Shown here: positions 4,803 through 58,895 of the stretch, piece after piece
Numbering within the stretch: the stretch's first letter is position 1
How the letters are laid out: each line of letters starts with the position of its first letter
NCBI GenBank assembly: GCA_045612185.1
Contig: JAZKYO010000045.1
Coordinates: forward strand, 18,389 to 82,388
DNA: 64,000 nt
Origin: Eubacteriales bacterium
Lineage (GTDB): Bacteria; Bacillota; Clostridia; Oscillospirales; CAG-272
Reading direction: 5' to 3'
Notes under the pieces: generated by a model
What the model was told of the DNA's origin: nothing
Database searches by the model: none
What the model saw: only the letters and a program-made list of their open reading frames with translations
Position numbers and translations under genes: made by a program

Positions 4803-5185
4803 ACAAGAAGTCTTACATTACAAGCCTTTTGATGCCAGATATTTCAGGTAATCCCCTGTCGGTGCGGCTGGTCGCTTGCGACCTTGTGAGCGAAGCGGGC
4901 AAGAGGCTTCGCCCCTTACGCACCAAGGCTTGTGCGAACATAACTTAACGCAATACGACAGACGGTGTCTAAACAACACCGCCTGTCTTTTTTCTGTCCT
5001 CAAGCCGCATTTTAGGCTCAAAATCTCCAAATTTGTGGAACTTTTATGGAACTTTCCACATCCCAAAATGAGCAAAATGGAAGCTGAAATGGAAGCCGAA
5101 CCGAAAACTTTCCATTGTAGCTTTATTATATCAAAAAAGCCCATTCTCGCGAATAGGCTTTTTTCGTTGTTTGCGGAATTGTATA
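4803..5185 (+). repeat. Modular intergenic repeat, copy B (X partial, S double hairpin 4861-4924, terminator form 1, M, 12-nt tract x2, Z)
   Basis: Terminator stem 4957-4968/4976-4987 plus T6 lies right after the 3697..4800 gene. A second A6-hairpin-T6 structure is at 5133-5164. Long identical runs are shared with copies C, D and E. Confidence 0.8.
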
Positions 5186-5340
5186 GTTCTTGAAAACGAG
5201 GATTTTGTCTATCCTCTTTTTGTCATCCTCATTTTCGCCTCATTTTGAGGCTTTTTTATTTTTTTACATATCTTTTCTTCACTGCATAGAAAAAGAGCTG
5301 CCTCAGATGCTCTTAAATTTGCATTTGAGACAGCCCCTTT

Positions 5341-6234
5341 TTAAATATTCATAAGCACCACCGCCGCAAGAGCAAGGGTCATTCCCACAATGCTTTTTGC
5401 GGTTATTTTTTCTCCAAAAAGTATGCTTGCGCAGATTGCCGAGGCAACCAGATTTGCGCCTTGAAGCGTTGGATACATCTGTGTAGAAGGAATAAACGCC
5501 ACCGCCATTGTTTTGGTTATAACGTTGACGTAAAGTGCGGCAGATATGATAAAGAATATCAAAATATGCCTTCTGTCGCAAAGGATGGGATTTTTCACCG
5601 CATTTTTGCTCTTTTTGAACAGAAGCAAAACGAAAAGCTGTGGCACGATCATCAAAAAGTAGGTATAAAAGGTAAACACGCAGGGCTCGCCAAGCGCCTC
5701 CTTGGTATAGACCTTTTGCATAAAGTCTGCAAGTGCAGTACCAACACCGCCAAGAAGCAGGGTGATTGCGCCCCGTTTGGTGATTTTTCCCGATATGCTT
5801 TTATTATAAAGCGACATAACGTACACCGCCGCAAAAAGCAGAATAAAGCCCATTATACGGGTTGGCTTAATAGCGTCGCCATACACCGCCCATCCAAGCA
5901 CCGCCGTTGCCACCGATGCAAGCATTGTAAAGATGTTTAAGAAAACGTACGCCTCGCTTTTATAGGCGTAAAGCCAGCTTATACAGAAGGTTGCCATAAA
6001 CACCGACGACAAAAGGCAAACTGCAAAAGCCTTTGGGGTAAGCGCAAGACCCGAAAAGCCCACCTGCGCCACCGCCACCGCAAAGCCGATACCCGCACAA
6101 AAAAGCGTGCGAATGGTATTTACGGTAAAACCGTCGTTAAGCGAGACCACGTCGCGGCTTATCTTTTTGCCCGAAAAGCCTTTTACAAGCCCTGCGACAA
6201 GTGCGGCAAGCAAATAAAGATAACCGACTATCAT
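5341..6234 (-). CDS. DMT/EamA-type membrane permease (about 10 TM)
   Basis: 297 aa and hydrophobic throughout, with two similar halves. The start overlaps the stop of the upstream gene (ATGA, 6231-6234). Confidence 0.7.
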   Translation of the reverse strand: MIVGYLYLLAALVAGLVKGFSGKKISRDVVSLNDGFTVNTIRTLFCAGIGFAVAVAQVGFSGLALTPKAFAVCLLSSVFMATFCISWLYAYKSEAYVFLNIFTMLASVATAVLGWAVYGDAIKPTRIMGFILLFAAVYVMSLYNKSISGKITKRGAITLLLGGVGTALADFMQKVYTKEALGEPCVFTFYTYFLMIVPQLFVLLLFKKSKNAVKNPILCDRRHILIFFIISAALYVNVITKTMAVAFIPSTQMYPTLQGANLVASAICASILFGEKITAKSIVGMTLALAAVVLMNI

Positions 6235-7439
6235 CCCTCGTACTCTCCAAAATCGGGCACGTCAAGGGGAATTCCACCCTGCTTTGCCGACTCAATGGCA
6301 ACAAGCCCGGGCACGGTATAACGAGCGGCAAGCCAAGCGTTAAGAATCGGTTGCTCGTTGTTATACACCGCCGTAACAAAGTCATTCATAAGGATCTGGT
6401 GGCTTCCCATATGTCCGTTGGGAAGTCCTTCGTATTCCTTGGGAAGTCTTGCAACGTCCTTTGCCTGCACGGCAGAATTACTGCTCCATTGCCACATTCC
6501 GTTTGCCACCTGATTTTTGAAATCGGTGTCGTTTTTGTGCGAAACCATTTCCGCGGAGTTAACGTAATCGCTTACGTCGGTAAGCTTTACTCTTTCCTTT
6601 TCGCTTGAATAGTCTCTTTCAACGAGGATGTGTTGGGCGTTACTGAATTCGTAGCCGCCCTTTGTGCCGTATACTGCGGAAATATAGGAGCTTGGGCTCT
6701 TCCAACCGATTCTTCTTGCCTCGGTAACCCTTGCCACGCCTCCGTTGGCAAGCTCCATAAAGACGTACTGATTTGAAAATTCGTTATCCCAAAGGTTATT
6801 GCCAACGCCAAAGCGGCCGTCGTTTTCGGTATCGGCATAGCCCACGCAGGTGACCCTCTTTACGTAGGAATCCACGGCAGAAAGGATCATTGCCGTTGAG
6901 TGTGTGGGATAGAGCAAGGGGGGCATTCCTCCCTCCATGGGGTCTTTGCCGTAGCCTATAGAGTCGATATCGTGATAATATTGGGATGCGCCGTAGGTAA
7001 ACTTACCGAATTTGCCCTCCGCATAGGCTTCGCGGCAGAACATTGCGCAGGGGTAATAGTAGCAGGTCTCGCCCATCATATAGATAAGTCCGCTCTTCTT
7101 GACAAGCTCGATTATTTCCTCGCAATGCTCAACGCTTGACGCCATGGGCACGGCAGAATAAACGTGCTTCCCCGCCTTAAGGGCGCGGATGACTATTTCT
7201 CCGTGGAGATGGCGTTGGGTGAAGTTCATCACGCAATCGATATCCTCACGCGCAAGAATCTCCTCGTAGGTATCTATTATTTCCACGCCGAATTTTTCCG
7301 AAAAGTCCTCGGCTTTTGAGCGAATCAAGTCGCAAACGTATACTTTTTCTACGTACGGATGTGCTTTGCAAAGCGGAACGAAGAATTTTGAAAATCTTCC
7401 GCAACCAACGAAAGCAACTGTCATTTTTTTGTTTTTCAC
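6231..7439 (-). CDS. Gfo/Idh/MocA family NAD(P)-dependent oxidoreductase
   Basis: The N-terminal Rossmann segment is MTVAFVGCGRFSKFFVPLC...VYVCDL...DCVMNFTQRHLHGEIVIRALKAGKHVYSAVPMA. 402 aa. Confidence 0.8.
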   Translation of the reverse strand: MKNKKMTVAFVGCGRFSKFFVPLCKAHPYVEKVYVCDLIRSKAEDFSEKFGVEIIDTYEEILAREDIDCVMNFTQRHLHGEIVIRALKAGKHVYSAVPMASSVEHCEEIIELVKKSGLIYMMGETCYYYPCAMFCREAYAEGKFGKFTYGASQYYHDIDSIGYGKDPMEGGMPPLLYPTHSTAMILSAVDSYVKRVTCVGYADTENDGRFGVGNNLWDNEFSNQYVFMELANGGVARVTEARRIGWKSPSSYISAVYGTKGGYEFSNAQHILVERDYSSEKERVKLTDVSDYVNSAEMVSHKNDTDFKNQVANGMWQWSSNSAVQAKDVARLPKEYEGLPNGHMGSHQILMNDFVTAVYNNEQPILNAWLAARYTVPGLVAIESAKQGGIPLDVPDFGEYEG

Positions 7440-7441
7440 GT

Positions 7442-8845
7442 CTACTCCTTTTCTGCCTCGCCACCTGCGAAGCCATTGAAATCATCAAAGAAGAACTGCG
7501 CGTTCTTAATTGCCTTTACTCCTATTTTTCCGTCGTCTCTGAAGGCGAGGCATATGGACGCATTGCCAACGTAGATATCCTCTGCCCAGACCTTGACGTA
7601 AAGCTTACTTGGTGTCAGCCATTCTCCAACGATGCTGCACTTGTAATTCATATAGCTATCCTTGTCAAACAAGGGTGCGCCCGTGTATTTTTGCGGGAAG
7701 ATTATCTCGGTCTCCCCTTGTGTGGAAAAGGGCAAACAATACTCTTTTCCGCCTATCTTGTAGTAAAGCTCATATGAGCAACCGTCGCCTTCAAGGCGCA
7801 GAGACTCGATTTTAAGCGTACCGTCAGAGATAATGAAATTTTTGTTTTTTATACTCTCGAAGATATTTTCGGTAATCGCCTTGGGTTGCGCTTCGTTGTA
7901 TTTTTCGCAGTCGATTACGGGAAATTCGGGCAAAATAATATCCTCCACGGCATTGAAAATTGCCTCGTAGTGGTTGATATTACCCGCGGTGTCGGAATTG
8001 CAGGCAAACACAAGGTCGCGCCCTGGGAAGGCAATTGCCACCTGACCCCCAAGCCCTCTGAAGGAAAACGCTCCCTCGGGATAGCTCCATATCTGATAGC
8101 CATAGCCGCAGAGAAAGCGGTCGCTGTCGCCGCCGTCGTCGTTGCGCTCAAGAGGTGACACGGCATCCTTGGCGTAGTCTTTAGGGATAAGACTCTTCCC
8201 ATTCCACTCGCCATTTTCCAAAAGCAGATAGGCAATTTTGGCTATGTCGGCCGTGGTTGCCATAAATGCCGAGGGTGCCCAAGCCTCGCCGTCGGGCCCT
8301 GCAAAGCAATAAACGCCGTCGCTAACGCCAATTTCGTCAAACACGGGGCGAAGATATTCCACAAAATCCTTTCCCGTTCTGTGCTTGACGATCGCACCTA
8401 AAACATAGCTTCCCGAGCTATCGTAATTCCACACCGTACCGCAAGGGTGGGTAGGTTGTATTGCGCCAAAGTAGCTTTCAAGCCAATTTGACTCCTTGGG
8501 AGTATACGTGCCCCTTGAATAAACGGTTGTCATTCTTAGCATATGGCGCACGGTCTGCTCTTTGAGCCAAGGGTGAACGCCTGACATATCGAATCTGTCG
8601 GCAAAAATATCGACTATTCTTTCGTCAAGCGACAGTTTCCCCTCTCCCACAAGCCTTCCGATAGCCACGGCTACCACCGATTTGGACACCGAATACATTC
8701 TCGTCTTAGTTTCGGCGGTATAGGGGCGGTTGTATATTTCACCTACTACCTCTTTGCCACTCATAAGCACTGCGCCGTGCAAGCGCACACGATATTTTTT
8801 CATTCTTTCGTTAAATTTTTCAAGCAAGGCGTCAAAATTTGCCAT
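7442..8845 (-). CDS. Beta-lactamase-fold serine hydrolase (class C / esterase-like) with C-terminal extension
   Basis: The S-x-x-K motif is in RMYSVSKSVVAVAIG. Preferred start is MANFDALLEKF (8845), which has an AAGGAGG RBS. Confidence 0.7.
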   Translation of the reverse strand: MANFDALLEKFNERMKKYRVRLHGAVLMSGKEVVGEIYNRPYTAETKTRMYSVSKSVVAVAIGRLVGEGKLSLDERIVDIFADRFDMSGVHPWLKEQTVRHMLRMTTVYSRGTYTPKESNWLESYFGAIQPTHPCGTVWNYDSSGSYVLGAIVKHRTGKDFVEYLRPVFDEIGVSDGVYCFAGPDGEAWAPSAFMATTADIAKIAYLLLENGEWNGKSLIPKDYAKDAVSPLERNDDGGDSDRFLCGYGYQIWSYPEGAFSFRGLGGQVAIAFPGRDLVFACNSDTAGNINHYEAIFNAVEDIILPEFPVIDCEKYNEAQPKAITENIFESIKNKNFIISDGTLKIESLRLEGDGCSYELYYKIGGKEYCLPFSTQGETEIIFPQKYTGAPLFDKDSYMNYKCSIVGEWLTPSKLYVKVWAEDIYVGNASICLAFRDDGKIGVKAIKNAQFFFDDFNGFAGGEAEKE

Positions 8846-12489: not shown

Positions 12490-12740
12490 CGGCTTGTCAG
12501 AAAACAGATACTTCAAGGTGTAAGCAGCTGCCGGTGCGGCTGGTCGCTTGCGACCTTGTGAGCGAAGCGGGCATAAGGCTTCGCCCCTTACGCACCAAGG
12601 CTTGTGCGAACATAGCAGGACGCAATACGACAGACGGTGTCTAAACAACACCGCCTGTCTTTTTTATGCCTTATTTTACTCAAAATAGCCCAATTTATGG
12701 AACTTTTATGGTGATTTCCATTTCTTAAAAACGTGAAGCG
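12490..12740 (+). repeat. Modular intergenic repeat, copy C (S double hairpin 12533-12596, terminator form 1, M)
   Basis: Terminator stem 12629-12640/12648-12659 plus T-run. Module S is identical to copy B except for two loop bases. Confidence 0.8.
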
Positions 12741-12770: not shown

Positions 12771-13514
12771 CTACCTCCATTTTGAAGGTGAGATGCCGCA
12801 AATTTGCTTGAATATTTTGCTGAAATAATACACATCTGAAAAGCCGCAGCGTGCAGCTACCTCGGTTACTGTAAGACTGCGGGTTTCCAACAGGGATTTG
12901 GCATGCTCAATTCGTCTCAGAATAATATATCGGTTGGGTGGGGTTCCGAATTTGCCCTTGAAAAGATCGTTGAAGCGCCGTGCGGAAATACCGCTTTGCG
13001 CGACCGCCTCTGCGAGGCAGTCAGCATTATTGAAATTTGTATCTATATAGCTTTTGGCGGTTGATATCCTCGCGTCCCTTGGAAAGTAGGCTTTGTGCCT
13101 CGCTTGTGAAATAGTGTCTAAAAGCTTGTATAGCGTTGATAAAAGAGCAAGCTCACCTTTTTCGGAATCGTTTTTTTGAAGCTCTGCCTTCTTTAGCAAT
13201 GTTACAAATTCCTCGGGATTTTCTATTGAGACGCAAAAGCTTTCGGTTTCGATGTCCTCGTACGTTGTAAAATGAACGGAGAAGGAATCTCCCGCTTCAT
13301 ATGCCTCTACCTCGTAGTCATCCTTTTGATTGAAAAAATAGACTTTGTTTCTTGATAATACAAAATCCTGATATCCGAAGTTGTGGTACGCAGAGCCGTC
13401 CAGCATAATTCCGACAAAGTGATTGCTTCTGTTTTTGGCACTCCATTTTTTGACGTTGGGCTTGTAACGGATAATTGAGTTGACTTCCTTAATTCGTATG
13501 TTTTCAAAGGTCAT
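12771..13514 (-). CDS. AraC/XylS family transcriptional regulator
   Basis: 247 aa. C-terminus: ...CLAEAVAQSGISARRFNDLFKGKFGTPPNRYIILRRIEHAKSLLETRSLTVTEVAARCGFSDVYYFSKIFKQICGISPSKW. Confidence 0.85.
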   Translation of the reverse strand: MTFENIRIKEVNSIIRYKPNVKKWSAKNRSNHFVGIMLDGSAYHNFGYQDFVLSRNKVYFFNQKDDYEVEAYEAGDSFSVHFTTYEDIETESFCVSIENPEEFVTLLKKAELQKNDSEKGELALLSTLYKLLDTISQARHKAYFPRDARISTAKSYIDTNFNNADCLAEAVAQSGISARRFNDLFKGKFGTPPNRYIILRRIEHAKSLLETRSLTVTEVAARCGFSDVYYFSKIFKQICGISPSKWR

Positions 13515-13656
13515 AATTTTTACCTCCCGAAGCTTTTTTTAGTGTATCACATTTTTTAAAATTTGTAAATATAAATTTCCGTATTTTACAAATTTCTTTA
13601 TTCTGCATTGTAAAGTAACGCGATGAATGATATACTGAAAAAAACAGGAGGTGCCT

Positions 13657-15900
13657 ATGTTTGAAATTTTAAGAGATGAATTGCATGATTTTTATTTTCA
13701 CGGTGATGCGGAGAGAGCCAAGGGTTTTTCGGATAAATGCTTTGCTATTATGAATGAGCGAGTATCCGACGGTATGAGCGTGACCGAGCAAAAGTTACTT
13801 CAATACGACGTAATAGTTGAACAATTTGAGCCTACGCTATTCCGCCACACTCCGTATTTTTACGAAACAGGGGTTTTGACCTCTCTTTCTGACGGCGCGC
13901 GGTGGGCGAAGGGACATTCATTTACGCAGGCAAACGGATGGGTCTATAAAAGAAATCAGCATTTGTTTTCCAAGCAGGATGAGGAACTTTATAAGCTGAA
14001 AACGGCACAGGTGTCGGAAAAGCTCTATCTCGTTTGCGGGCCTTATAATGACACGTCTCAGCATTTCAACTTTAATAACCGTCCGTTTTTACAGATGGGT
14101 GCTGTCGGTATATATGAGCGGGCAAAGTCAGAACTTGCAAACGCAAAAAATGATGATGAGAGGGAATTCCTTAATGCGGTTTGCCACGGTATGATCGCTC
14201 TTCGCCGAATGGCTGAGCGATTTGCACAAAAGGCTACTCAAATGCTTTCGGCAGAGAAGGAAGAAGCAGTACGAAAAAATCTTGAGCTGATTGCAAAGAC
14301 CGCCGCACGCGTGCCGTGGAATGCCCCTGAGACTTTTTATGAGGCATTGGCGACTCTCGCGTTTCTCCGTACAGCAATAGGAACACTTGAGGGAGTCGGT
14401 CCCAATACATTCGGTAGGATAGACAAGGATCTGATATCCTTTTACCGCTCAGATATTGAAAAAAACATTATCACCCCCGATGAGGCATATGCGTTGATCT
14501 GTCAATTTTTGCTTATTTGGGACTGTCATTATGACCACGATATGCTGATGGAGGGTTATGCCGATCACGAGCTGGAAAACACCTACACTTTGGGCGGCTG
14601 TGACGACGAAGGCGCTCCGCTTTGCAATGAGCTTACTCTGATGTTTCTGCGTGCCACACGTGAAGAGAATATCATTTTCCCAAAAATAAAATGTCGATTC
14701 TCAAAAAATTCTCCAAAGGAATATTTTGATGAGATGAATATTGCTATCACCGGCGGAACAAGCACGGTGCTACTTCAAAATGACGATGCAACCATTCCTG
14801 CCTTGGTGCGTGCGGGCAGACCTATCGAAGAAGCTCGTGATTATTACGTATCGGGATGTTGGGGCATCGTTACAGCGCAGGAAAAATACGACCACGGAAG
14901 CTATACCAATCTGTTAAAGCCCTTTGAGTTTTCTTTGCACCGTCTTGACGACAAAATGAAGAATGTGGGGATTCGGTTCGAATGTTTTGACGGTTGCGAA
15001 AGCTTTGAAGAGCTTTACAAAAAGACGCTTTCCAATTGCGATAAGCTGTTGTCCGCTAAGCTTGACGTTCTTCGGCGCGGCGGTCAAATTTTTCACAAGG
15101 TAGACCGTTTTCCCATATTTTCCTCTACTCTCGAAGATTGTCTTGAAAACCGTAAGGATTTTACTATGGGCGGCGCAAGGTACAATGACGATTACCACCT
15201 GATGTTCGGACTTCCCAATATTGTGGATTCTTTGCTCGCAATCAGGGAATTGGTCTGGGAACAGAAGAAATATACGCTTGACGAGATATTGACCGCCGTG
15301 CGTACCAACTGGGTAGGATATGAGAATATACGCCTTGATGCGGTGCGCTGTCACGGTTGGGGGGATGGAAGCGAAGCCTCAACAGCGCTCGCCAACCGCT
15401 TTAATAACGACCTGTTTGCAATATGCCAAAAGTATAAGGGGACATATGGCGGCAAGGTACATATGGGACACTTGACTTATACGGAAATTCGTTTTTGGGG
15501 TGAGAAAACGCTGTCAACACCCGACGGACGAAAAAACGGTGAATACTTTGCGCAAGGGCTTACCCCCTCCCGACTTAAACGAATTCCTTGCGTTACCGAC
15601 GTAATAAACAGTATGGCGGCTTTGGATCCGTCTGCAATGGCGGCAGGCTCGGTGGTGAATGTTATTTTACCAAGCCGTATTCCGCTAGAGCAATGCGGTG
15701 CGTTTCTTCGCGCGGTCGCAAGGAGTGCGGTGCAATCGCATCAGCTCAACTGCACCAGCCGCGAGGAGCTTCTTGATGCGCAAAAGCACCCCGAAAAATA
15801 TCCCAATCTTATTGTACGTGTAACGGGTTTCTCGGCAAAATTCACCAGCCTGTCAAAGGAGTGGCAGGATGAGGTGATTTCGAGAAACTTTTATGTGTAA
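13657..15900 (+). CDS. Glycyl radical enzyme, PFL2/dehydratase-like family (GRE-1)
   Basis: The C-terminal glycyl-radical motif is NLIVRVTGFSAKFTSL, with TPDGRKNG upstream and a candidate Cys loop YYVSGCWGIV. Preferred start is ATG 13657 (AGGAGG 5 nt upstream) rather than the tracked GTG 13651. Confidence 0.8.
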   Translation: MFEILRDELHDFYFHGDAERAKGFSDKCFAIMNERVSDGMSVTEQKLLQYDVIVEQFEPTLFRHTPYFYETGVLTSLSDGARWAKGHSFTQANGWVYKRNQHLFSKQDEELYKLKTAQVSEKLYLVCGPYNDTSQHFNFNNRPFLQMGAVGIYERAKSELANAKNDDEREFLNAVCHGMIALRRMAERFAQKATQMLSAEKEEAVRKNLELIAKTAARVPWNAPETFYEALATLAFLRTAIGTLEGVGPNTFGRIDKDLISFYRSDIEKNIITPDEAYALICQFLLIWDCHYDHDMLMEGYADHELENTYTLGGCDDEGAPLCNELTLMFLRATREENIIFPKIKCRFSKNSPKEYFDEMNIAITGGTSTVLLQNDDATIPALVRAGRPIEEARDYYVSGCWGIVTAQEKYDHGSYTNLLKPFEFSLHRLDDKMKNVGIRFECFDGCESFEELYKKTLSNCDKLLSAKLDVLRRGGQIFHKVDRFPIFSSTLEDCLENRKDFTMGGARYNDDYHLMFGLPNIVDSLLAIRELVWEQKKYTLDEILTAVRTNWVGYENIRLDAVRCHGWGDGSEASTALANRFNNDLFAICQKYKGTYGGKVHMGHLTYTEIRFWGEKTLSTPDGRKNGEYFAQGLTPSRLKRIPCVTDVINSMAALDPSAMAAGSVVNVILPSRIPLEQCGAFLRAVARSAVQSHQLNCTSREELLDAQKHPEKYPNLIVRVTGFSAKFTSLSKEWQDEVISRNFYV

Positions 15901-15912
15901 AGAAATTCAAGG

Positions 15913-16180
15913 AGAATACCGTATGAAGCAACTTAGAGAACTTAAATTTGAGGAGCTTACGGTAAAACAGAAGCTGGGCTTAGTAAACACTGTGGTTTTG
16001 AGTGCTGATTACAGTGATGAAACCGAGGAATACGCTGTGAAGAAAATTCGCGACCATGCCGTTGGCGCGGTGTGGATACAATGGTCTCCTTTCAAAAAAG
16101 ATGCTGGATATCGCGAGAAATTTGGGATTTGAGGGATTTTTCATCACCGACGATCTGGGGATGATGGGAATTTGGTTTAA
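15913..16180 (+). pseudogene. GH3 (NagZ/beta-glucosidase-like) gene remnant
   Basis: The 70-aa ORF MKQLRELKFEELTVKQKLGLVNTVVL...GAVWIQW resembles a GH3 N-terminus. After a stop, another frame reads GFFITDDLGMMG (the GH3 S/T-D-D-L-x-M nucleophile region). The roughly 150 aa normally between these segments are missing. Confidence 0.4.
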
Positions 16181-16445
16181 TTTGTTTTTATCCACATTTT
16201 TAACAAAAAAGTCTTGATATTTAAAACGGTTTATTATAAGGAAATATCATTTTTCCTTGAAGGTGACGCCGATTCTGTACGCAGACTTAATTTCACATCA
16301 AGAGAAGACGGTACCTCTACACCCGCGCTCGTTCTTGGTACAGATGGGGCAACCTTTTCCACGTATCTTAATTATACCGATGTAAACCCCTGGGAAGTTG
16401 CTATGGAGTACGTTTCCACATGGCTTCACAGATGGGAGATCATCA

Positions 16446-16585
16446 AGCAGGGCGCAATACGACAGACGGTGTCTAAACAACACCGCCTGTCTTTTTTCTG
16501 TCCTCAAGCCGCATTTCAGGCTCAAAATTTCCAAATTTGTGGAACTTTTATGGAACTTTCCACACCCCTATTATATCAAAAAAGA
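16446..16585 (+). repeat. Modular intergenic repeat, copy D (terminator form 1, M, start of Z)
   Basis: Terminator stem starts at 16461, T-run at 16492-16497. GTGGAACTTTTATGGAACTTTCCAC is identical to copy B. Confidence 0.8.
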
Positions 16586-16668
16586 ATATTCTAACGAAGG
16601 GGGCGGATCTCTTTATGCTTTCGCTGAAAACGCGTGTTCTGATGACATGTGATGATGAATCCAATGTC

Positions 16669-28668: not shown

Positions 28669-28975
28669 TGGAAGCTTCCATTTTTCATAAGCTTATAGGC
28701 AAATTCATAAAGCTCACAAAGCCTTACACGACAAGCCTTTTAATGCCAAGCTTACATAAAGCAACTGCAACGAAGCTCCACGCACCAAGGCTTGTGCGAA
28801 CATAGCAGGGCGCAATACGACAGACGGTGTCTAAACAACACCGCCTGTCTTTTTTCTGTCCTCAAGCCGCATTTTAGGCTCAAAATCTCCAAATTTGTTG
28901 AACTTTTATGGAACTTTCCACTTCTCAAATAGAGCAAAATGGAAGCTAAAATGGATTTTTTCCATAGGCTATTAT
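28669..28975 (+). repeat. Modular intergenic repeat, copy E (X, 3' part of S, terminator form 1, M, 12-nt tract about 1.5 units)
   Basis: GGAAGCTTCCATTTTT and AAGCCTTTTAATGCC (module X, as next to the integrase fragment in copy A). Terminator stem 28819-28830/28838-28849 plus T-run. AAAATGGAAGCTAAAATGGA. Confidence 0.75.
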
Positions 28976-37937: not shown

Positions 37938-40157
37938 ATGGAATACATCAAGAACTGCGATTACGATTATATTATAAACAAATATCACGACACAAATAAG
38001 CCCTATAACAGCCTTAGCCGTTTTGTCCGCAATGACGAAATATTCGACGAGGACAGCGGAACCGAATACTTTACCCTTAAGGCGCAGGTTATGGAGAACG
38101 ACGAAAAGATAGCTCATCTTTCGCACAACGTTCGCAAGGCAACCGCCTTTGCAAAAATTCTTGAGGGTACAAGAATTTCCTGCGACAGCCGAGACCGATT
38201 TCCTGCCATAAATGCGATTTCACGCCCTCTTTCCGACCTGCAGGGCAAGTGGCGCAAGGAGCTTTTCAACGAAATTCTACCCGAAATCGGCAAGAAAATG
38301 ATTGAACTTGAAAAGGCGGGCACGGTAACTATCTGGCCCGACTTCGACCACGCCGTTCCCGATTGGGTGGTTATTTTAAACCGCGGCTTCAGCGGTATTC
38401 TTGAGGACAGCGAAAAATCCTGCGCTTCTAAGAAGTGGGACGAGGAAAAGGACAGCTTTTTCGAGGGTGTAAAAATAACCTACGAGGCAATAATCGCCTT
38501 TATCGACCGTCTTGCCGACCGTGCCGAAAACACAGATGGCTCGCAAAGAATGGCAAAGGCATTGAGAAACATTGCTCACAATCCCCCCTCTACTTTCTAC
38601 GAGGCACTTCTTACCAACTATCTTTTCTTTATGATTTGCGAGCACGTTGACAATATGCAGGTGCGCTCCCTCGGAAACTTTGACAGAGAGTTTTATCCTT
38701 TCTACAAAAACGACCTGGCAAACGGTATCAGCGAGGAGGAAATACGCACAGACCTTGCATATTTCTTTATGCAGTTCACCGCCATTGACAACTACTGGAA
38801 TCAGCCTGTTTATCTCGGCGGGTGCGACGAAAACGATATTGCAATCACCAACGAGCTTTCCTATCTCTTCCTTGAAGTTTATGACAAGATGGGAATATTC
38901 AATCCCAAAATTCAGCTTAAAATTTCAAAATCCACACCCAAGGAATTTACTCTTAAGGCACTTGACATGGTGCGCAGAGGTCACAGCTCTATTGTTTTTG
39001 TCTGCGACGAGACCATGAGAGCCGCACTTCGCAAGATTGGCGCCAGCGAGGAAGAAGCAAGGCTTTGCGATGTTAAGGGTTGCTATGAATACTCGGTTCG
39101 AGGGGCATACGACGTGGGTATGAACTACCTTAATCTCTTAAAGCCTCTTGAGTATGCGCTTCACTGCGGAAAAGACGGAGTTACCGGTGTTATGGGCGGT
39201 CTTGAGTGCCCCGCACCCGACCAATACAAGAGCTTTGACGAAATCCTTGCGGAATACAAGCGTCAGCTTAAATACATCATCGACGTAACCATTGAGACGG
39301 TAAACACCTTTGAAGATTATCTTGACTACGTAAACCCCGCATTTGTATTTTCGGCAACATTCCCATCCTCATTAAACAGCGGTATGTCGGCCACCTGCGG
39401 AGGTGCGCTTGACAACAACTCTGGGCTTGCAGTCGGCTTTACCGCAGATATAGCCGACTCCCTTGCAATGATAAAGAAGTACGTCTTTGACAAAAAAGAG
39501 ATTACCCTTTCGGAGCTTACCGAAATTCTCGACAAGAACTTCGAGGGTAACGAGCTGTTAAGACGAAAGCTGTTTAACGACCCCGACAAATTCGGAAACA
39601 ACAAAGATCTCCCCGACGGCATCGCCAAGGAGATTGTAGGCTACATCACAAGCCTTGTAAGCCACCGCAAAAACGCCAAAAAGCGCGGCGGCATCTGGGA
39701 CGTGGGCTACCACACGGCAAGAATGTGCTATGTTCAGGGCGAAATCACGGCGGCTTCTCCCAACGGCAGACACCTTGGTGACGAGCTTGCAAAGAATCAC
39801 TCGGCATCTATGGGACAAAACAGAGCGGGCGCAACGGCGGCAATTCTTTCAACCACCAAGCTTGACGCCCCCACGTACAGAGGCGACAGCTCACTTGACC
39901 TTGGGCTTCTTCCCTCCGCTGTAAAGGGAGACGACGGTCTTGAGGCAATGTACGGACTTTTGCGCACCTTTATGGACAAAGACGGGCATGCGCTTCAAAT
40001 AAACGTTCTCAACGCCGACACACTTCGTGACGCTCAAGTACATCCCGAAAAATATCAAGACCTGCAAATCCGCGTTTGCGGCTGGAACGTGCTGTGGAAT
40101 AATATAAACAAGGAAGAACAGGACGGATTTATCAAACAGGCTGAGGGACTTATATGA
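37938..40157 (+). CDS. Glycyl radical enzyme, PFL2/dehydratase-like family (GRE-2)
   Basis: 739 aa. The C-terminal motif is DLQIRVCGWNVLWNNI. The candidate thiyl loop is DVKGCYEYSV (Cys-x-Glu). SPNGRHLG stands at the position of the TPDGR motif. GAGGTG RBS. Confidence 0.8.
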   Translation: MEYIKNCDYDYIINKYHDTNKPYNSLSRFVRNDEIFDEDSGTEYFTLKAQVMENDEKIAHLSHNVRKATAFAKILEGTRISCDSRDRFPAINAISRPLSDLQGKWRKELFNEILPEIGKKMIELEKAGTVTIWPDFDHAVPDWVVILNRGFSGILEDSEKSCASKKWDEEKDSFFEGVKITYEAIIAFIDRLADRAENTDGSQRMAKALRNIAHNPPSTFYEALLTNYLFFMICEHVDNMQVRSLGNFDREFYPFYKNDLANGISEEEIRTDLAYFFMQFTAIDNYWNQPVYLGGCDENDIAITNELSYLFLEVYDKMGIFNPKIQLKISKSTPKEFTLKALDMVRRGHSSIVFVCDETMRAALRKIGASEEEARLCDVKGCYEYSVRGAYDVGMNYLNLLKPLEYALHCGKDGVTGVMGGLECPAPDQYKSFDEILAEYKRQLKYIIDVTIETVNTFEDYLDYVNPAFVFSATFPSSLNSGMSATCGGALDNNSGLAVGFTADIADSLAMIKKYVFDKKEITLSELTEILDKNFEGNELLRRKLFNDPDKFGNNKDLPDGIAKEIVGYITSLVSHRKNAKKRGGIWDVGYHTARMCYVQGEITAASPNGRHLGDELAKNHSASMGQNRAGATAAILSTTKLDAPTYRGDSSLDLGLLPSAVKGDDGLEAMYGLLRTFMDKDGHALQINVLNADTLRDAQVHPEKYQDLQIRVCGWNVLWNNINKEEQDGFIKQAEGLI

Positions 40158-41020
40158 CAAGCTCACCCATTACGGTAATAAGGCAAAACAGATGTGTTAT
40201 CGGCGAGGGACCCGTATGGAATGCGGCTGACGAAAAACTTTATTTCGTCAACGCCAGGGGGCAAAACGAAATATGTACATACGCACCCGAAACAGGGATT
40301 ATTTCGGCGCGTGCTTATGACGAGGGCACATCTGCGATCGCCTTTTCAAAAGACGGCAGAATGCTGGTGTCACGCAGAAGCGGGGCGTTCTACTTGAACG
40401 AGGACGGCTCGACCTCACCGCTTTATGACTGTGAAAAATACGATTTGCGATACTGCAACGACGCCAAAGTGGGACCCGACGGAAGATTTTACGTTGGAAC
40501 GCAAAGCGAAAAACGTGTTAAGGTGTCGGACAAAATAAACGGCAGGCTCTACAGTATTGACAAAGACGGCAACGTGCGCATTTTGCTTGAGGGTCTTATC
40601 CTTTCCAACGGCATGGAGTGGTCAATTGACGAAAAATTCTTTTACCATACCGACAGCGACACGTGGACTGTAAAAGAATACTCCTTTGACAAGCAAAGCG
40701 GAGATATTGAATTTACAGGCAGACAGATAAAAGTTCCCTATGTTGACGGGTTTACAATAAACCAAAACGGTTACTTGCTTGCCGCTTGCTGGGGGTGCGG
40801 TCACATTGCCGTGATAGACACCGCCGACATGAGTATACACGAGCACATTCCGATTCCCGCATCAATCCCCGCAAGCTGCGGATTTTTCGGCGATAACATG
40901 GATATGCTGGCAATAACCACCGCAAGCTACAACGCCGACCTTACAAAAGATGAAAACACAGGTTACCTGTGCACGGCACAAATGAAAACAGGAGGAAGAA
41001 AACCCTACCTTTTCGGTTGA
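40154..41020 (+). CDS. SMP-30/gluconolactonase/LRE family beta-propeller (lactonase-like)
   Basis: 288 aa. RCVIGEGPVWNAADEKLYFVNARGQNEICTY...CNDAKVGPDGRFYVGT...SNGMEWS...YHTDS... ATGA overlap with the GRE-2 stop (40154-40157). Confidence 0.7.
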   Translation: MTSSPITVIRQNRCVIGEGPVWNAADEKLYFVNARGQNEICTYAPETGIISARAYDEGTSAIAFSKDGRMLVSRRSGAFYLNEDGSTSPLYDCEKYDLRYCNDAKVGPDGRFYVGTQSEKRVKVSDKINGRLYSIDKDGNVRILLEGLILSNGMEWSIDEKFFYHTDSDTWTVKEYSFDKQSGDIEFTGRQIKVPYVDGFTINQNGYLLAACWGCGHIAVIDTADMSIHEHIPIPASIPASCGFFGDNMDMLAITTASYNADLTKDENTGYLCTAQMKTGGRKPYLFG

Positions 41021-41026
41021 AAAACA

Positions 41027-41956
41027 ATGATAAATTCAAAAAACAGTTTAAAAACTCTCATGCTCGCCCTTTTGGTAATGGCGCTTTGGGGCTCGCTTTT
41101 CCCCATGATAAAAATAGGATACGCATCATTCAGCATTGCGTCATCAGACATTCCCACAATTATACTTTTTGCGGGAATGAGATTTACATTCAGCGGAATT
41201 ATTCTCATCGCTATTTTCTCTGCCAAATCTAAAAGCTTTGCCGTGCCAAAGCGGTGCGAGATATTGCCGATACTCCTTGGCGCGCTTGTAACAATAATCC
41301 TGCACTACATCTTTACCTATCTTGCACTTTCAATCGGAGAGGGCTCAAAGACCGCAATAGTAAAGCAGATATGCTTTCTTTTCCTCAGCTGCTTTGCCTT
41401 TCTGTTTGACAAGAGCGACAAGTTTACGGTCAATAAAGTTATAGCCGCAATTTTTGGATTTGCGGGAATAATTGCCACGGCATACGACGGAACGGCAATT
41501 GTATTTATGCTTGGCGACATTTTGCTTCTTTTAGCTTCAGCTTGCTCGGCGGCGGGAACTGTAATTTCAAAAAAAGCAACGCAAATTGTAGCACCTATGA
41601 AATTTGTAGCTTACTCCCAGTTCTTTGGCGGTGTATTTCTTCTTGCCATAGGATTGATACTTGGCGGAAGAATAACACACGTTGACGCAAAATCAATCGG
41701 AGTATTTCTCTACATATGCGCGGCATCAATAACGGCATACACGCTTTGGAATATGCTCCTTAAGAGCGAAAGTGTGTCAAAGCTTTCGATAATAAAATTC
41801 ACAGAACCGCTGTTTGCCGTCATATTCTCGGGTATGATCTTGGGCGAGGATATTTTCAAGCTCTCCTACCTCGTTGCCCTCGTTCTGCTGCTTTTGGCGT
41901 TACTCACGGAAAACGGCGTTTGGAAGCCCATTCGAAAAAAGGAGAACAAGAAATGA
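41027..41956 (+). CDS. EamA/DMT family permease
   Basis: 309 aa, about 10 TM segments, two EamA-like halves. Confidence 0.7.
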   Translation: MINSKNSLKTLMLALLVMALWGSLFPMIKIGYASFSIASSDIPTIILFAGMRFTFSGIILIAIFSAKSKSFAVPKRCEILPILLGALVTIILHYIFTYLALSIGEGSKTAIVKQICFLFLSCFAFLFDKSDKFTVNKVIAAIFGFAGIIATAYDGTAIVFMLGDILLLLASACSAAGTVISKKATQIVAPMKFVAYSQFFGGVFLLAIGLILGGRITHVDAKSIGVFLYICAASITAYTLWNMLLKSESVSKLSIIKFTEPLFAVIFSGMILGEDIFKLSYLVALVLLLLALLTENGVWKPIRKKENKK

Positions 41957-52071: not shown

Positions 52072-52128
52072 AATCAAATTGCTGATTGTTTGTGAAGTGA
52101 ATTATAAACAGTTTACAAAGAAAGCAAA

Positions 52129-52165: not shown

Positions 52166-52280
52166 TCATTGTTTTAAGATGAGCAAACCGGAAGCTTTCC
52201 GCTGTAGCTTTATTACATTAAAAAAGCCCATTTTTGCTAATAGGCTTTTTTCGTTGTTTGCGGAATTGTTGCGTTTTTGC
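52166..52280 (+). repeat. Modular intergenic repeat, copy I (partial M/V, Z)
   Basis: CCGGAAGCTTTCCGCTGTAGCTTTATTACATTAAAAAAGCCCATTTTTGCTAATAGGCTTTTTTCGTTGTTTGCGGAATTGT parallels 5100-5182 of copy B. Confidence 0.75.
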
Positions 52281-52284
52281 AATA

Positions 52285-53010
52285 TTAAGACGGATGTTGT
52301 TTGCGGTACTGAAGCGGCGAAAGACCGATGTGCTTTTTAAAGCAGGTGGAAAAATAAAATGAGTCGCGAAAGCCGCACTTAGTAGAAATACTCTCGATGC
52401 TTTCGTAAGGATTAATGATCAACAGCTGCTGTGCGCGGGCGATGCGAAGATCAATGAGATAATTATGCGGCGTTTTTTGTGTTTTTGCCTTGAAGCATCT
52501 TCTCATATAGTCTGTATTGTAGCCTATATTTTTAATTGCTTCGGTAAGATCAAAGTCGCAATTTTCAAGATTTTCAAGAATTGTATTTTTCAAAAGCTCT
52601 ACTATGGAATTCTGATTTTCTTTAGAGGAAAAGCGTTTTGCGTATTGAATCAATGCATCCAAAAGACTGCCGGCGATACGTTGATAATTGTCCTCTTTTT
52701 TATTCATAATTCCATGGATCATCCAAGCCAGTGACTCTGTATAGGATTCGTTGTCATGAAGTACGAGAGGTTGGGAGATATCCGTAGAATCGCAATGAAT
52801 TACCAAATCGAAAAACTGTCCTTGAGAATAATCGGAATGAAATATTTCAGGGGGAACACAATAAAGATCACCCTTGGATACCATATAAGTTCTATCACCT
52901 ATCGTGGTGTGACTGTCGCCGCAAAGGCGATAAACGATCTCGAGACAACCGTGCTTATGTTTTGATGAACGGGAAATATCAGAATTTATTAAAGAAAACA
53001 AAACCTTCAT
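52285..53010 (-). CDS. AraC/XylS family transcriptional regulator
   Basis: C-terminus: ...LTEAIKNIGYNTDYMRRCFKAKTQKTPHNYLIDLRIARAQQLLIINPYESIESISTKCGFRDSFYFSTCFKKHIGLSPLQYR. Preferred start is MKVLFSL (53010). Confidence 0.85.
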   Translation of the reverse strand: MKVLFSLINSDISRSSKHKHGCLEIVYRLCGDSHTTIGDRTYMVSKGDLYCVPPEIFHSDYSQGQFFDLVIHCDSTDISQPLVLHDNESYTESLAWMIHGIMNKKEDNYQRIAGSLLDALIQYAKRFSSKENQNSIVELLKNTILENLENCDFDLTEAIKNIGYNTDYMRRCFKAKTQKTPHNYLIDLRIARAQQLLIINPYESIESISTKCGFRDSFYFSTCFKKHIGLSPLQYRKQHPS

Positions 53011-53275
53011 ACTCTTACCTCTCAATTATAGCCCCATAATAACATAAAAGGTCGGTTTTGTCAAGATTTTGGTCTGCATATAATATTCACTTTTGGCTCA
53101 ATCGTGTTTATAATGGATATATCACCTGGGTTTTGCGAGAGACGCTGTAGTTTTAAATGGTTCACTATCTTACAGGGGCGGGTATTCTTATTCACTTCTT
53201 CACGATGTGGGCGATGCTTACGGCGGTTTCCGTTGGGCGGTTATCTGAGAGCATATACTTTACAAGGAGGTACAT

Positions 53276-55391: not shown

Positions 55392-58300
55392 TTATTTGCC
55401 ATATTTAGCGTCAAAATACTCGATAAGCTTATAAACGTTCTTGTTTATCTGTACCATGTCGTCGGTAAGGGCTGTGTATTCCTCGTGCTTGTTGTTTACA
55501 ATTCCTTTGTTTGAATCACGGCTGGTGGTATCGGTGGCATTTGCCTTGGGGTCGTTGTCGGTATATTGGAACCATTGCCAACCTACGCAGTTTTTCGCCT
55601 CAAGCATACGGAGCGTGAAGTTCTGATAGAACAGACCTCTGTCCTCTTGGGTGTTTACGTAGAAGCCCGCGCCGTCCTTGCTTGCGAGATTGTCAAAGGT
55701 ATCCGAGGATTTTGCGTAGAACTCGGTTACCATAAAGGGAATACCCGCGTATCGCGCAAAGTCGTAAATGAACTCTGCCTGCGGCTCCCATGCGGCGTAC
55801 CAGTTAATCGTAAGAATATCAAGATACTCGCCCGAAACGCGAAGCACCCATTCGGATTCCTTTACCGCGTGGAGATATTTTGTTCCTGCGTAAAGGTGGT
55901 TGGTGTCATACTTTTCTATGGCGTTCTTCACAACGTGGTAGTATCTGTCCCAAACAAATCCGCGGAAAAGGTCCATCATCTCGCTGGTAAGGTCTTGGTC
56001 TGTGATATACTCTTTACCGGTCATTTCGGTTATCCAATACCATGCGCAGGCGTATGAGTAGCGGTTGATTTTCTTGTATGGGTCGACAGTAAGAAAGTCG
56101 CGGAGCATGGTAAGGTCCATGGGAAGCTCGTTGTCGGTTATGTAAGCTATCATGTTTTTATCGTCGGGGACAACGTTCGTCTTTGCCATGTCGTCAACGT
56201 ATGTCTCAAAATCGGGATTGAATACCGGCATGGTGTTGTTTTCCGAGAATCTTGCCTGACCGCCCGTGGTGGCATTAAGCCCATTGGCTGTGCCGTAGCC
56301 TATCATTGGGCTGAAACGTTTGAAATAGGAGAGACCGCCCTCAACGCTGCGAAGCACCGAATCAGAGGTCATTTCGCAGTTGAAGAGAAGGTCGTCTTTG
56401 AGATGTCTTGTGGTGGATATTGCCCATCTTTCGGGGGTGCCGAATTTTTCAAGAATGGCGTTCTTTTGCGTTGGGGAGTTTTTGTATGCTACGGTGACTC
56501 CGCTCATGCTTCTTAACACGCACGGATATCCGAGAGGATCTATAACCCACCATCTGCCGTTGATTTTTGTTGTATAGAAAAAGCCTGTTGCCTTTTGACG
56601 AAGCGCGTTATCAACAATTCCGCCGTAAACGTCAAATTTGGCGTCGGTGGATGCCGAGAAGCCCTTGAGGGCGTCTAACGTTCTCGTGGGTTGCTCTGTA
56701 AATTCCTTTGAGGGATTGTTTCCGGGGGACATTACGGTTTTGGTAAACTCACTCATGTCGGATTGAATAAGAGAAGCGTTGCCAAGGGGCTTTGCTTTCA
56801 TTTTTTCGTAGCGAACGTACCATTCGTCGTACATTTGCTTTGCTCTGTCCCATATCGCTTTGTTTTCTGCCTCGTCATTTACAAGCTGCTTTACAAAGGT
56901 TCTACCCGCGGAAATCTGATTTTCTTTATAGACCTTAAAGTGTGGCATCGTGGATGCGGTGGGGGATGACGTGTCAATGGTGGTTACTCCCTCGGTTTCG
57001 TCTATCTGCACAAGCATAATAGAGAAGTTTGTTTTGCCGTCAAAAAGCATATCCTCCACAAACTCTGTTACGTCTACCGCGGCAAAGCTGTTAAGCACGG
57101 CGTTTGCTATTACAGGTGTTTCATTGAGCTTTTTGGGTTGGGTATCCCAGGTTACCTTTCCCGAGGTCCAGTTATCATCAACAAGATATACGTCAAAATG
57201 AACGGCGGGAGACTTTTGTATGGCTGTAAATGTCAGCGACAGCTCCGCAAATCCCACTTCAAGGACGTTGAGCCCCGAAAGATCGAATTTGAAGAGGGCG
57301 CGGCGTGCAACGTCGTTCTTCCAAAGTCCGTTCTTTATGTGGAGACCGTCCGCCAGATTTTCCTCGGCGTTAATGGTTCTCCAGTTCTTTTTGCTGTATT
57401 TGCCGCCTCTTACGTAAGCGTATTCGGTTGCATAGAAGCTTCTCATAGGTAGGTCCTCCTTTGGGGTATCGGTGGGGGTGTCGGTTGCGTTGCCGGAACC
57501 TGCGGTTATAATGAGATGAGGCATTTCTCCGTCTCCGAGCTTGGAAAATTCTATTTGCGTCTCGCTTACCGTTTCAACAGATTGAAGTATCATAAGCGTC
57601 ATTTCTTTTTCGCCCTTTTGTATCATTGTGTAAAGGGCAGACGTGACGTCGGCTGTGGTTGTATTTAAAATAACGTCGTCAGCGATAGGCGTGCTGTTTA
57701 GCTTTGCGGGCTGGGAGGAGTAGGTTATCATGCCATCGTCCCAGACGTTTGACACAAGGAATACCTTAAACGGCACTTCTGTGTCGGATTGGATTTTGGT
57801 GAATTTTATTGCAAGCTCAGCTTTACTTACGTTTTCGGTTGTAAGTCCGGATATATCGAATTTGAGATATGTATGGCGTGTGGAGCTGCTTACCTTGTGA
57901 CCGTTTTTGATGATAAGCATTTCGCCAAGACCGCGCTCCTCAAGAATATCGCGCCAATTTTTGTCTTTCCAGTCGTTGCCGCGCACGTAGGCGTACTCTG
58001 AGGCGTAAAGCCTGCCCATGCTGTCAATGCCCGATGTGCTTGGATCCGAGCCTGCCGACGTGCCCGTGCTTATAATCAGTCTCGGCATTTCCTCGGCTTT
58101 AAGCTTTGAAAATTCAATCTGCGTTTCGCTTACCGTTTCAATTGTCTGAGAAATCATAAGCGTAACGCACCTGTCGCCTTGGCGAAGGGCGGTTTTTATG
58201 GCGGAGGTAACGTCGGCTGTTTCGTTTTTGAAAATAACGTCCGACGCAATGGGAGTGCTGTCAATCTTGGCAGGTTGATTTGAGTAGGTAATTTCGTTTT

Positions 58301-58706: not shown

Positions 58707-58895
58707 AACAACTCTCCTTTTGGGTTTTATAGTTTTATTATACAATAAAAATGAACAAATGTAAATATTCTTGTGCAAAAAGAATGACATTTACAAACAA
58801 GAATTTTGTATATACAAACTTCCTTTTATTTCTGATTTGTAAAAACAGAAAAGCACTGGATCGTTAACGAACCAATGCTTTTTTATTGTGACTTG

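Follow-up and report, generated by a model that had tools for sequence, protein, structure and literature searches.

An uncharacterised family of glycyl radical enzymes with a non-canonical cysteine loop in gut Clostridia

All characterised eliminases and isomerases among the glycyl radical enzymes (GREs) use a glutamate in the loop that bears the catalytic cysteine. What should one make of a GRE that does not have it? This question is raised by a gene, here called GRE-1, in a 64,000-nt (64-kb) stretch of DNA from a Eubacteriales bacterium (assembly GCA_045612185.1, contig JAZKYO010000045.1, positions 18,389 to 82,388), which we refer to as the window and whose positions are used as coordinates throughout. 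A first-pass annotation made from the sequence had described GRE-1 as a divergent, orphan GRE in which the eliminase glutamate is missing from the Cys loop, and had proposed that it performs chemistry other than 1,2-elimination. We followed this up by sequence, structure-model and genome-neighborhood analyses. Our best explanation is that GRE-1 is a functional GRE of a widespread family, activated in trans, which would cleave a C-X bond without a Cys-loop carboxylate, and we put the probability of this explanation as a whole at about 0.6. Since the GRE-1 family does without the glutamate, yet is widespread and strongly conserved, it represents either a different route to radical C-X cleavage or a reaction that is not yet on the list of GRE reactions.

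GRE-1 looks like an intact and functional glycyl radical enzyme

The gene and the elements that define it are as follows.

13657-15900, plus strand: GRE-1, a 747-residue GRE of an uncharacterised family (open reading frame [ORF] scan, Pfam, PDB and NCBIfam matches, homologues, AF2 model)
13646-13651, plus strand: ribosome-binding site (RBS) AGGAGG, 5 nt before ATG 13657 (direct sequence reading)
15817-15885, plus strand: glycyl radical fingerprint beginning RVTG724FSAKF, with the Gly724 codon at 15826-15828 (regular expression)

GRE-1 is a single long ORF (13651/13657-15900, plus strand). Since AGGAGG precedes it at 13646-13651, ATG 13657 is the likely start, the alternative GTG 13651 falling within this RBS. 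The protein matches the Pfam families PFL-like (E = 6.8e-90) and Gly_radical (7.8e-15), and the two motifs that had been noticed at first sight are indeed there, TPDGR at 15517-15531 and RVTGFSAKF at 15817-15843. In a regular-expression test, RVTGFSAKFTSLSKEWQDEVISR (residues 721-743) satisfies the whole published C-terminal GRE fingerprint, RVxG[FWY]x6-8[FL]x4Qx2[IV]x2R (PMC13450708). The radical-bearing Gly724 is present and invariant in the family, so the change of Gly to Ala, Ser or Thr by which an aminoacyl radical enzyme (AARE) is recognized is not seen. An AF2 model built from 27 homologues (pLDDT 82, pTM 0.86) is predicted to adopt the ten-stranded β/α-barrel fold of GREs, since Foldseek matches it to more than 40 GRE chains with TM 0.77-0.84. 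This range holds for CutC, IseG, glycerol dehydratase (GD, structure 1r8w), HypD, propanediol dehydratase and PflD, at ~21% identity.

We then asked whether GRE-1 belongs to a maintained family. Among 5.8 billion proteins searched there are at least 120 homologues at 67-95% identity, nearly all of 746-749 residues, almost all annotated "hypothetical protein" and originating from metagenome-assembled genomes of Clostridia and Oscillospiraceae. A scan of one genome per species gave at least 144 confirmed loci in uncultured Clostridia, 80 of which were fetched. The hosts are uncultured Oscillospiraceae, Acutalibacteraceae, Christensenellaceae and others, from ruminant, deer, human and other guts. 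In the homologue alignment, 241 of the 747 positions are ≥97% conserved, and comparison with the closest relatives (89-93% DNA identity) yields dN/dS values of 0.09-0.12. The possibility raised in the first-pass annotation that orthologues carry inactivating lesions thus finds no echo in these full-length genes. Taken together, GRE-1 is, as far as its sequence can tell, an intact, functional-looking GRE with the full apparatus, under strong purifying selection.

The cysteine loop has glycine where eliminases have glutamate

Three sites in GRE-1 matter for its chemistry.

14851-14871, plus strand: Cys loop S-G-C401-W-G403-I-V, with the thiyl Cys at 14857-14859 and, at 14863-14865, Gly in place of the eliminase Glu (alignments)
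14887-14889, plus strand: Tyr411, which covaries with position 403 (family alignments)
14062-14064, plus strand: His136, family-invariant and aligned with GD His164, the proposed general acid (conservation and profile alignment to 1r8w; putative role)

Four kinds of alignment concur in placing Cys401 opposite the Cys of G-C-x-E and Gly403 opposite its Glu. These were phmmer (HMMER) to CutC and HypD; the family profile against CutC, HypD, GD and HpyG; BLASTP against a second GRE of the window, GRE-2, whose loop reads GCYE; and MAFFT with 119 representatives of related clusters. The SGCWGIV loop without eliminase glutamate is therefore upheld, and a thiyl Cys elsewhere with a normal C-x-E or CC motif, which the first-pass annotation had named as the finding that would undo its claim, is not what the alignments give. 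In the AF2 model, strands 397-399 and 403-405 are predicted to form a hairpin that carries Cys401 at its tip. Cys401 is invariant among 191 homologues, and a tally of the position two residues further on (Cys+2) in 191 non-redundant sequences gave Gly in 127, Asp in 53, Ala in 7, Cys in 3, Ser in 1 and Glu in 0. Also invariant in the family alignment are G400, W402, Glu409 and Asp412, as is Gly724.

The residue at Cys+2 does not vary freely. In a core clade of 121 sequences (≥67% identity), 71 of the 79 with Gly403 have Tyr or Phe at 411, and 36 of the 39 with Asp403 have a small residue there, such as Ser or Ala; positions 399 and 405 likewise covary with 403. On a neighbor-joining tree built without the loop columns, the state of position 403 switches ~40 times and the class of residue 411 ~35 times. 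This pattern points to a recurrent, sterically compensated swap, in which the same space would be filled either by Asp with a small partner or by Gly with an aromatic one. Each of these changes is a single-nucleotide step. In 19 of the 121 core-clade sequences Gly403 is combined with Phe411, and no polar side chain remains there. Since these pairs leave no polar group, a carboxylate at Cys+2 would not be required in the GRE-1 family.

These findings bear on one alternative, which is that GRE-1 is an ordinary 1,2-eliminase or dehydratase in which the base role of the glutamate is taken over by Asp403 in some members, or by His136, Glu409, Asp412 or an ordered water. We consider this, on balance, less likely than not. 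It would fit with the closest solved relatives of GRE-1 all being eliminases or isomerases, with the GCWE or GCWD loops of related clusters and the Asp found at Cys+2 in 28-32% of family members, and with the invariance of His136, Glu409 and Asp412, the first two of which align with GD His164 and Glu443. The family profile further pairs Glu245 with GD Glu277, Asn250 with GD Ser282 and Tyr411 with GD Trp445. However, the Gly403-Phe411 sequences leave the site bare of polar side chains, and in CutC and HypD replacement of the glutamate (E-to-Q or E-to-A) abolishes activity (PMC13450708; PMC7077986). Glu409 as a family-specific stand-in for the lost glutamate was ruled out, because it is also found in relatives that retain CXE, and it aligns with GD Glu443. 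Chemistry other than 1,2-elimination, as originally proposed, is plausible, but the proposal goes too far given the Asp at Cys+2 in ~28% of the family, the GCWE/GCWD neighbors and the invariant His136.

Genomes with two family paralogues hold differing loop subtypes: GCWG…QEKYDHG, which is the window-like one, GCW[GA]I..NG.EK.DD and GCWDL.S.GVEK.D. Because paralogues within one genome carry differing subtypes, the broad family probably covers several specificities.

Two loci, L044 and L050, each have two divergently oriented family paralogues ~2 kb apart, at their positions 5960-8212 (minus strand) and 9959/9986-12235 (plus strand), with loops GCWA…EKIDD versus GCWD…EKADA. The genomes SIG663, SIG604 and T1900045494 each have two loop subtypes on separate contigs. 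These cases point to sub-families that differ in specificity.

GRE-1 is related to eliminases but falls outside every characterised group

We next determined where the family stands among GREs. A HMMER search that exhaustively covered 1.84 billion cluster representatives (50%-identity clusters) gave 5493 matches, ~100 of which outscore every GRE of solved structure (229-1071 bits versus 213 bits for CutC); these are mostly 735-765 residues long, with alignments that begin close to the N-terminus. Loops in the nearest clusters (36-44% identity) are GCWE or GCWD, and those in farther ones GCQE, GCHE, GCVE or GCYE. Since the nearest clusters carry GCWE or GCWD, loss of the glutamate looks derived, within a radiation of short GREs that is large and uncharacterised. 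Among NCBIfam models, TIGR01774 (PFL2/GD subfamily) scores 287 bits against a cut-off of 678, and equivalog models reach ≤25% of their cut-offs. Neither the GRE-1 family nor a GCWG/GCWD loop was found described in literature searches. The GCWE cluster scoring closest to GRE-1 (P0123, P0271) is uninformative on substrate, its short contigs showing neither AraC nor activase, only a metallo-β-lactamase-fold protein and a membrane protein. Within its known superfamily, GRE-1 is an uncharacterised variant whose catalytic loop is clearly non-canonical.

The best matches of GRE-1 are the eliminases CutC, HypD, GD and propanediol dehydratase (E = 5e-62 to 4e-57, TM 0.79-0.84). They share with it the Gly fingerprint, the Cys register and the His aligned with GD His164, and with its family an activase partner with ferredoxin-like inserts (Pfam Fer4). 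However, GRE-1 has G-C-W-G rather than G-C-V-E and so departs from C-x-E, is only ~21-23% identical, is ~40-100 residues shorter with its own conserved N-terminal region, and, unlike them, has no microcompartment or downstream pathway genes among its neighbors. According to a 2026 review, CXE is kept by the C-O eliminases, all six of them, as well as by CutC, the C-S lyases and the three isomerases, and only PFL and TdcE have Cys-Cys instead (PMC13450708). Among the isomerases, YbiW and PflD (1,5-anhydrohexitol-6-phosphate; "anhydroglycolysis") act on sugar derivatives and match GRE-1 at ~1e-46 to 1e-48; the carbohydrate-related genomic setting of GRE-1 is a further likeness, but YbiW (Glu443) and PflD (Glu433) keep the CXE that GRE-1 lacks (PMC13450708). 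PFL and TdcE belong to the same superfamily and have the same glycyl radical domain. In contrast to their Cys-Cys, GRE-1 has an invariant Gly before Cys401, and only the C-terminal radical domain aligns (E = 5e-15). The label "formate C-acetyltransferase" that some family members bear in databases is wrong; TIGR01255 gives GRE-1 54 bits versus a cut-off of 994. GRE-2 and other paralogues of ~700-750 residues resemble GRE-1 in being short GREs, often with AraC, activase and glycoside hydrolase genes nearby. However, GRE-2 is only 27% identical to GRE-1, and these paralogues keep CXE (GCYE, GCNE, CVE) and have Gly loops unlike that of GRE-1, such as RVCGWNV.

A different reaction class, for example a decarboxylase or another terminal one-step reaction, would be the other way to account for the missing glutamate. 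Loss of the glutamate with free toggling between Gly and Asp suggests that no ketyl is deprotonated at position 403, and the minimal module of regulator, GRE and activase described below, in which no transporter or downstream enzyme is conserved, fits a product that needs no downstream pathway. In phenylacetate decarboxylase, a numbering with Cys482 as the catalytic residue would put Gln484 at Cys+2, and the CXE glutamate would be lacking there too. The review describes Gln484 as essential, without numbering the Cys (PMC13450708). Against this stands the clearly lower similarity of GRE-1 to X-succinate synthases and arylacetate decarboxylases than to eliminases, with PDB matches of 4e-27 to 1e-36 versus 5e-62 (AAD 1.3e-36, HPAD 1.6e-21) and only 142-143 bits to the HPAD and IAD models (142 for IAD), whose cut-offs are 1100-1150. 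Small-subunit genes are not conserved beside GRE-1 (neighbors of 82 loci). Moreover, the family nests among CXE families and keeps the His matching the general acid of eliminases, and we therefore hold a different class to be improbable.

A conserved, operator-like element lies between GRE-1 and a divergent AraC gene

The gene upstream of GRE-1 and the intergenic region between them comprise the following elements.

12771-13514, minus strand: cognate AraC-family regulator, 247 residues, divergent from the GRE (Pfam HTH_18, 2.3e-21; HTH_AraC, 1.1e-15)
13559-13569 and 13585-13595: 11-bp perfect inverted repeat (confirmed in the sequence)
13562-13596: operator-like element TTTGTAAATATAAATTTCCGTATTTTACAAATTTC, ~35 bp, holding most of both arms, the left arm beginning 3 nt upstream (conservation)
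13608-13636, plus strand: predicted GRE promoter, -35 TTGTAA (13608-13613), 17 nt, TG-extended -10 TATACT (13631-13636), abutting the operator (consensus scan)
13541-13569, minus strand: predicted AraC-gene promoter, -35 TTTACA, 17 nt, TG-extended -10 TACACT (consensus scan; putative function)

GRE-1 had been said to diverge from its own AraC regulator across an 11-bp perfect inverted repeat, and both parts of this statement hold. We looked at the flanks of orthologues, a check that had also been proposed, and found an orthologous divergent AraC gene upstream in 61 of the 75 family loci with enough upstream sequence. Clustering of the neighbors in 82 loci showed AraC and the activase to be the only conserved ones; the remaining top clusters are shadow ORFs within the GRE gene. 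Homology to the three closest relatives spans 12694/12703 to 15896/15910, with one edge a little beyond the AraC stop codon and the other no more than 10 bases from that of the GRE.

The inverted repeat is far beyond chance and recurs in orthologues. Its arms with their 15-nt spacer occur once in the window versus 0.04 times expected, and 40 of 78 orthologous loci have the operator element, allowing ≤1 mismatch per arm, upstream of the GRE, versus 1.2 in shuffles. In most of the matching loci the spacer is again 15 nt long, and 57-78 nt separate the element from the start codon; the spacer sequence is conserved as well. A scan of metagenome contigs for exact matches returned 10 operator sites, seven of which adjoin genes of the AraC/GRE family of GRE-1 (four flanked by both genes, and three, on short contigs, with only one gene visible). 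The other three, in unrelated sequence, were treated as chance. A second near-match to the arms in the window, TTTGTGAA-N15-TTTACAAA at 52089-52119, has an unrelated spacer, lies just past a 2065-residue ORF and near the AraC gene 52285-53025, and is probably due to chance.

An alignment of orthologues shows that CATTGyAA-N17-TATAnT is conserved at the position of the GRE promoter, which is predicted to be of the σ70 type. On the other strand, the -35 box of the AraC gene, TTTACA, is the reverse complement of the left inverted-repeat arm, and ATTATAnCA, the reverse complement of its extended -10, is conserved across orthologous intergenic regions. This layout is as expected for an AraC-type activator that would bind beside the -35 box and control its own gene too. 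A riboswitch as explanation for the regulation, or for the repeats described below, was rejected because Rfam found no RNA family in the window. With its putative AraC sensor and sharply defined operator and promoter, the module offers a handle for finding the inducer and the substrate.

An activase gene next to the GRE gene is often missing

A cognate radical-SAM activase is a hallmark of GREs, and the first-pass annotation had reported that none is present. This was confirmed for the window, as Pfam detected no radical-SAM domain in any ORF ≥180 aa and tblastn gave the same answer (see below). "Orphan", however, was an overstatement, since the family usually has a dedicated activase. In loci with ≥1 kb of downstream sequence (n = 71), an activase gene lies directly downstream of the GRE in 40, and the 31 others keep full-length GRE genes. 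Adjacency changes, by loss or gain, at least 18 times on the tree. With so many loci lacking an adjacent activase and so many changes on the tree, the activase-less copy in the window represents a common state of the family.

In several loci the activase is not far away. L061, L079, L073 and L083 have no directly adjacent activase gene but a family-type one close by, 71-85% identical to the adjacent ones and located either 1.2-1.3 kb off or directly behind a neighboring GRE of the GCNE type, whose Gly loop, RV[ST]G[FY]SD, is similar. In the metagenome contigs L093, L095 and L097, an activase gene either shortly precedes the module or follows it at ~1.3 kb on the opposite strand. Two of these contigs (L097, 638-1429; L095, 2-127) have the family activase upstream of the operator or AraC gene. 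Since the activase sits upstream of the operator or AraC gene in some contigs, gene order within the module is fluid. It is likeliest that the activase of GRE-1 is encoded elsewhere in the genome, and it may be shared. That the adjacent activase has been lost repeatedly is relevant to how specific GRE activases are, a question still debated in the field.

Could GRE-1 instead be a non-functional leftover, an inert or decaying gene that has lost its activase in a repeat-bounded cassette? The lack of an activase in 64 kb, the gene remnant and dispersed repeats that follow GRE-1, and homology to relatives that stops at the GRE stop codon would all agree with this. However, the ORF is intact, with a strong RBS and a conserved promoter and operator; purifying selection at the dN/dS given above acts among relatives whose short assembled downstream stretch likewise shows no adjacent activase; and nearly half of the family loci, as counted above, keep full-length genes in the same situation. 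A leftover is therefore very improbable.

A proposed reaction and the points that weigh against it

Returning to a functional, trans-activated GRE, we propose the following sequence of events. The AraC protein would sense the substrate or a related small molecule and, acting from the operator, switch on the GRE promoter. The radical would be installed on Gly724 by an activase whose gene lies elsewhere in the genome, from Gly724 it would be passed to Cys401 (Gly724• to Cys401•), and hydrogen-atom abstraction would follow. A C-X bond would then be cleaved in an eliminase- or isomerase-type reaction, using His136 and no Cys-loop carboxylate. We see the chances of this reaction type as evenly balanced. 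C-X cleavage is suggested because the GREs among which the family nests bear CXE and because His136 is retained, and independence from a Cys-loop carboxylate because position 403 toggles between Gly and Asp with compensation at 411 and the Gly-Phe pair lacks a polar group. The weakest step is the substrate, perhaps a small, diet-derived, carbohydrate-related metabolite, and derivation from carbohydrate is at best a tentative suggestion to which we would give somewhat less than even odds. A broader proposal, which is speculative and which we rate as rather unlikely, is that the GCW[G/D/A] family represents a new GRE reaction class of eliminase-like ancestry, with a thiyl radical but no longer any Cys-loop carboxylate, acting on a metabolite from diet or host in rumen and gut Clostridia, with an activase that is often shared with or borrowed from another GRE.

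Several observations weigh against the explanation of GRE-1 as a functional, trans-activated GRE. The Fisher test for covariation between positions 403 and 411 (P = 4.5e-19) ignores phylogeny. A PDB search with residues 105-196 alone, an independent test of His136, gave no significant match; since the fragment alone matches nothing, the putative equivalence of His136 to GD His164 is only as good as the full profile alignment, and conservation is weak in this N-terminal part. As the neighborhood beyond AraC and activase is not conserved, the sole basis for the carbohydrate link is the loose recurrence of glycoside hydrolase and sugar genes nearby. As to activation, tblastn with three activases over the 64 kb found neither an activase nor a remnant of one (best E = 0.2), and activases are regarded as fairly Gly-loop-specific (PMC13450708). 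The RVCGWNV loop of GRE-2 makes it doubtful that GRE-1 shares an activase with GRE-2, although dependence on the Gly loop would be compatible with sharing between GRE-1 and a paralogue whose loop is RVTGFS-like.

Repeats, a gene remnant and a second GRE surround the module

Immediately outside the conserved module lie three further features.

12520-12668: left flanking dispersed-repeat copy, 93% identical to 4848-4996
15923-16200, plus strand: short ORF with its own RBS, beginning 23 nt past the GRE stop codon, followed by a frame-shifted LGFEGFFITDDLGMMG string; outside the conserved module
16422-16604: right flanking dispersed-repeat copy ("copy D"), a repeat family member with a terminator-like hairpin inside (16467-16485)

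Repeat copy D, reported downstream of GRE-1 in the first-pass annotation, is real. It belongs to a family of dispersed repeats, and the contigs of the three closest relatives (L085-L087, 3.6-3.8 kb) end on both sides in copies of repeats that recur many times in the window. In the window, AraC, GRE-1 and the short remnant are enclosed by partial copies of one such repeat, at 12520-12668 and 16422-16604. Because the relatives' assemblies are interrupted by such repeats at either end of the block, the AraC-GRE pair seems to behave as a compact, repeat-bounded cassette, and this suggests that such cassettes are shuffled. Dispersed intergenic repeats of ~70-300 nt, interspersed among the gene cassettes, were seen at 2249-2317, 4848-5195, 12520-12668, 16422-16604, 28710-28962, 37646-37866/43713-43933 and 52186-52282. 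One of the repeats (5099-5195 / 52186-52282) contains a terminator-like hairpin, and none of the repeats has an Rfam match.

The LGFEGFFITDDLGMMG string after GRE-1, which lies in a shifted frame, presumably resembles GH3 enzymes, a resemblance that Pfam does not support. Neither 15923-16200 nor the ORF 16214-16594 has a Pfam match (E ≤ 1), which leaves the decayed GH3 gene of the first-pass annotation unconfirmed; 15923-16200 is a probable gene remnant. Since this remnant follows and a terminator-like hairpin lies at 16467-16485, GRE-1 is effectively the sole intact gene of its own transcript.

GRE-2 (37938-40157, 739 residues, loop GCYE, Gly loop RVCGWNVLWNN) is likewise without an activase. 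An SMP-30/gluconolactonase-like gene (40154-41956) overlaps its end, and an EamA transporter gene comes next. The presence of two orphan GREs near carbohydrate-active genes had been called unusual. However, related genomes repeatedly show two or three distinct GREs within 22 kb, each accompanied by AraC genes and glycoside hydrolases, and a GRE-2-type gene stands beside GRE-1-type genes in L073, there with an activase, and in L083.

The window as a whole has at least eight AraC-family genes in 64 kb (2701, 9008, 12771, 35236, 52285, 59781, 60612 and others). Each adjoins a different glycoside hydrolase, esterase or GRE cassette, an unusually dense layout of one regulator per cassette. Finally, an ORF at 55392-58790 (minus strand) encodes a 1132-residue protein with three Pfam CBM96 stretches, and within it a tandem duplication with a 564-nt period and 74-75% identity extends over 57499-58499.

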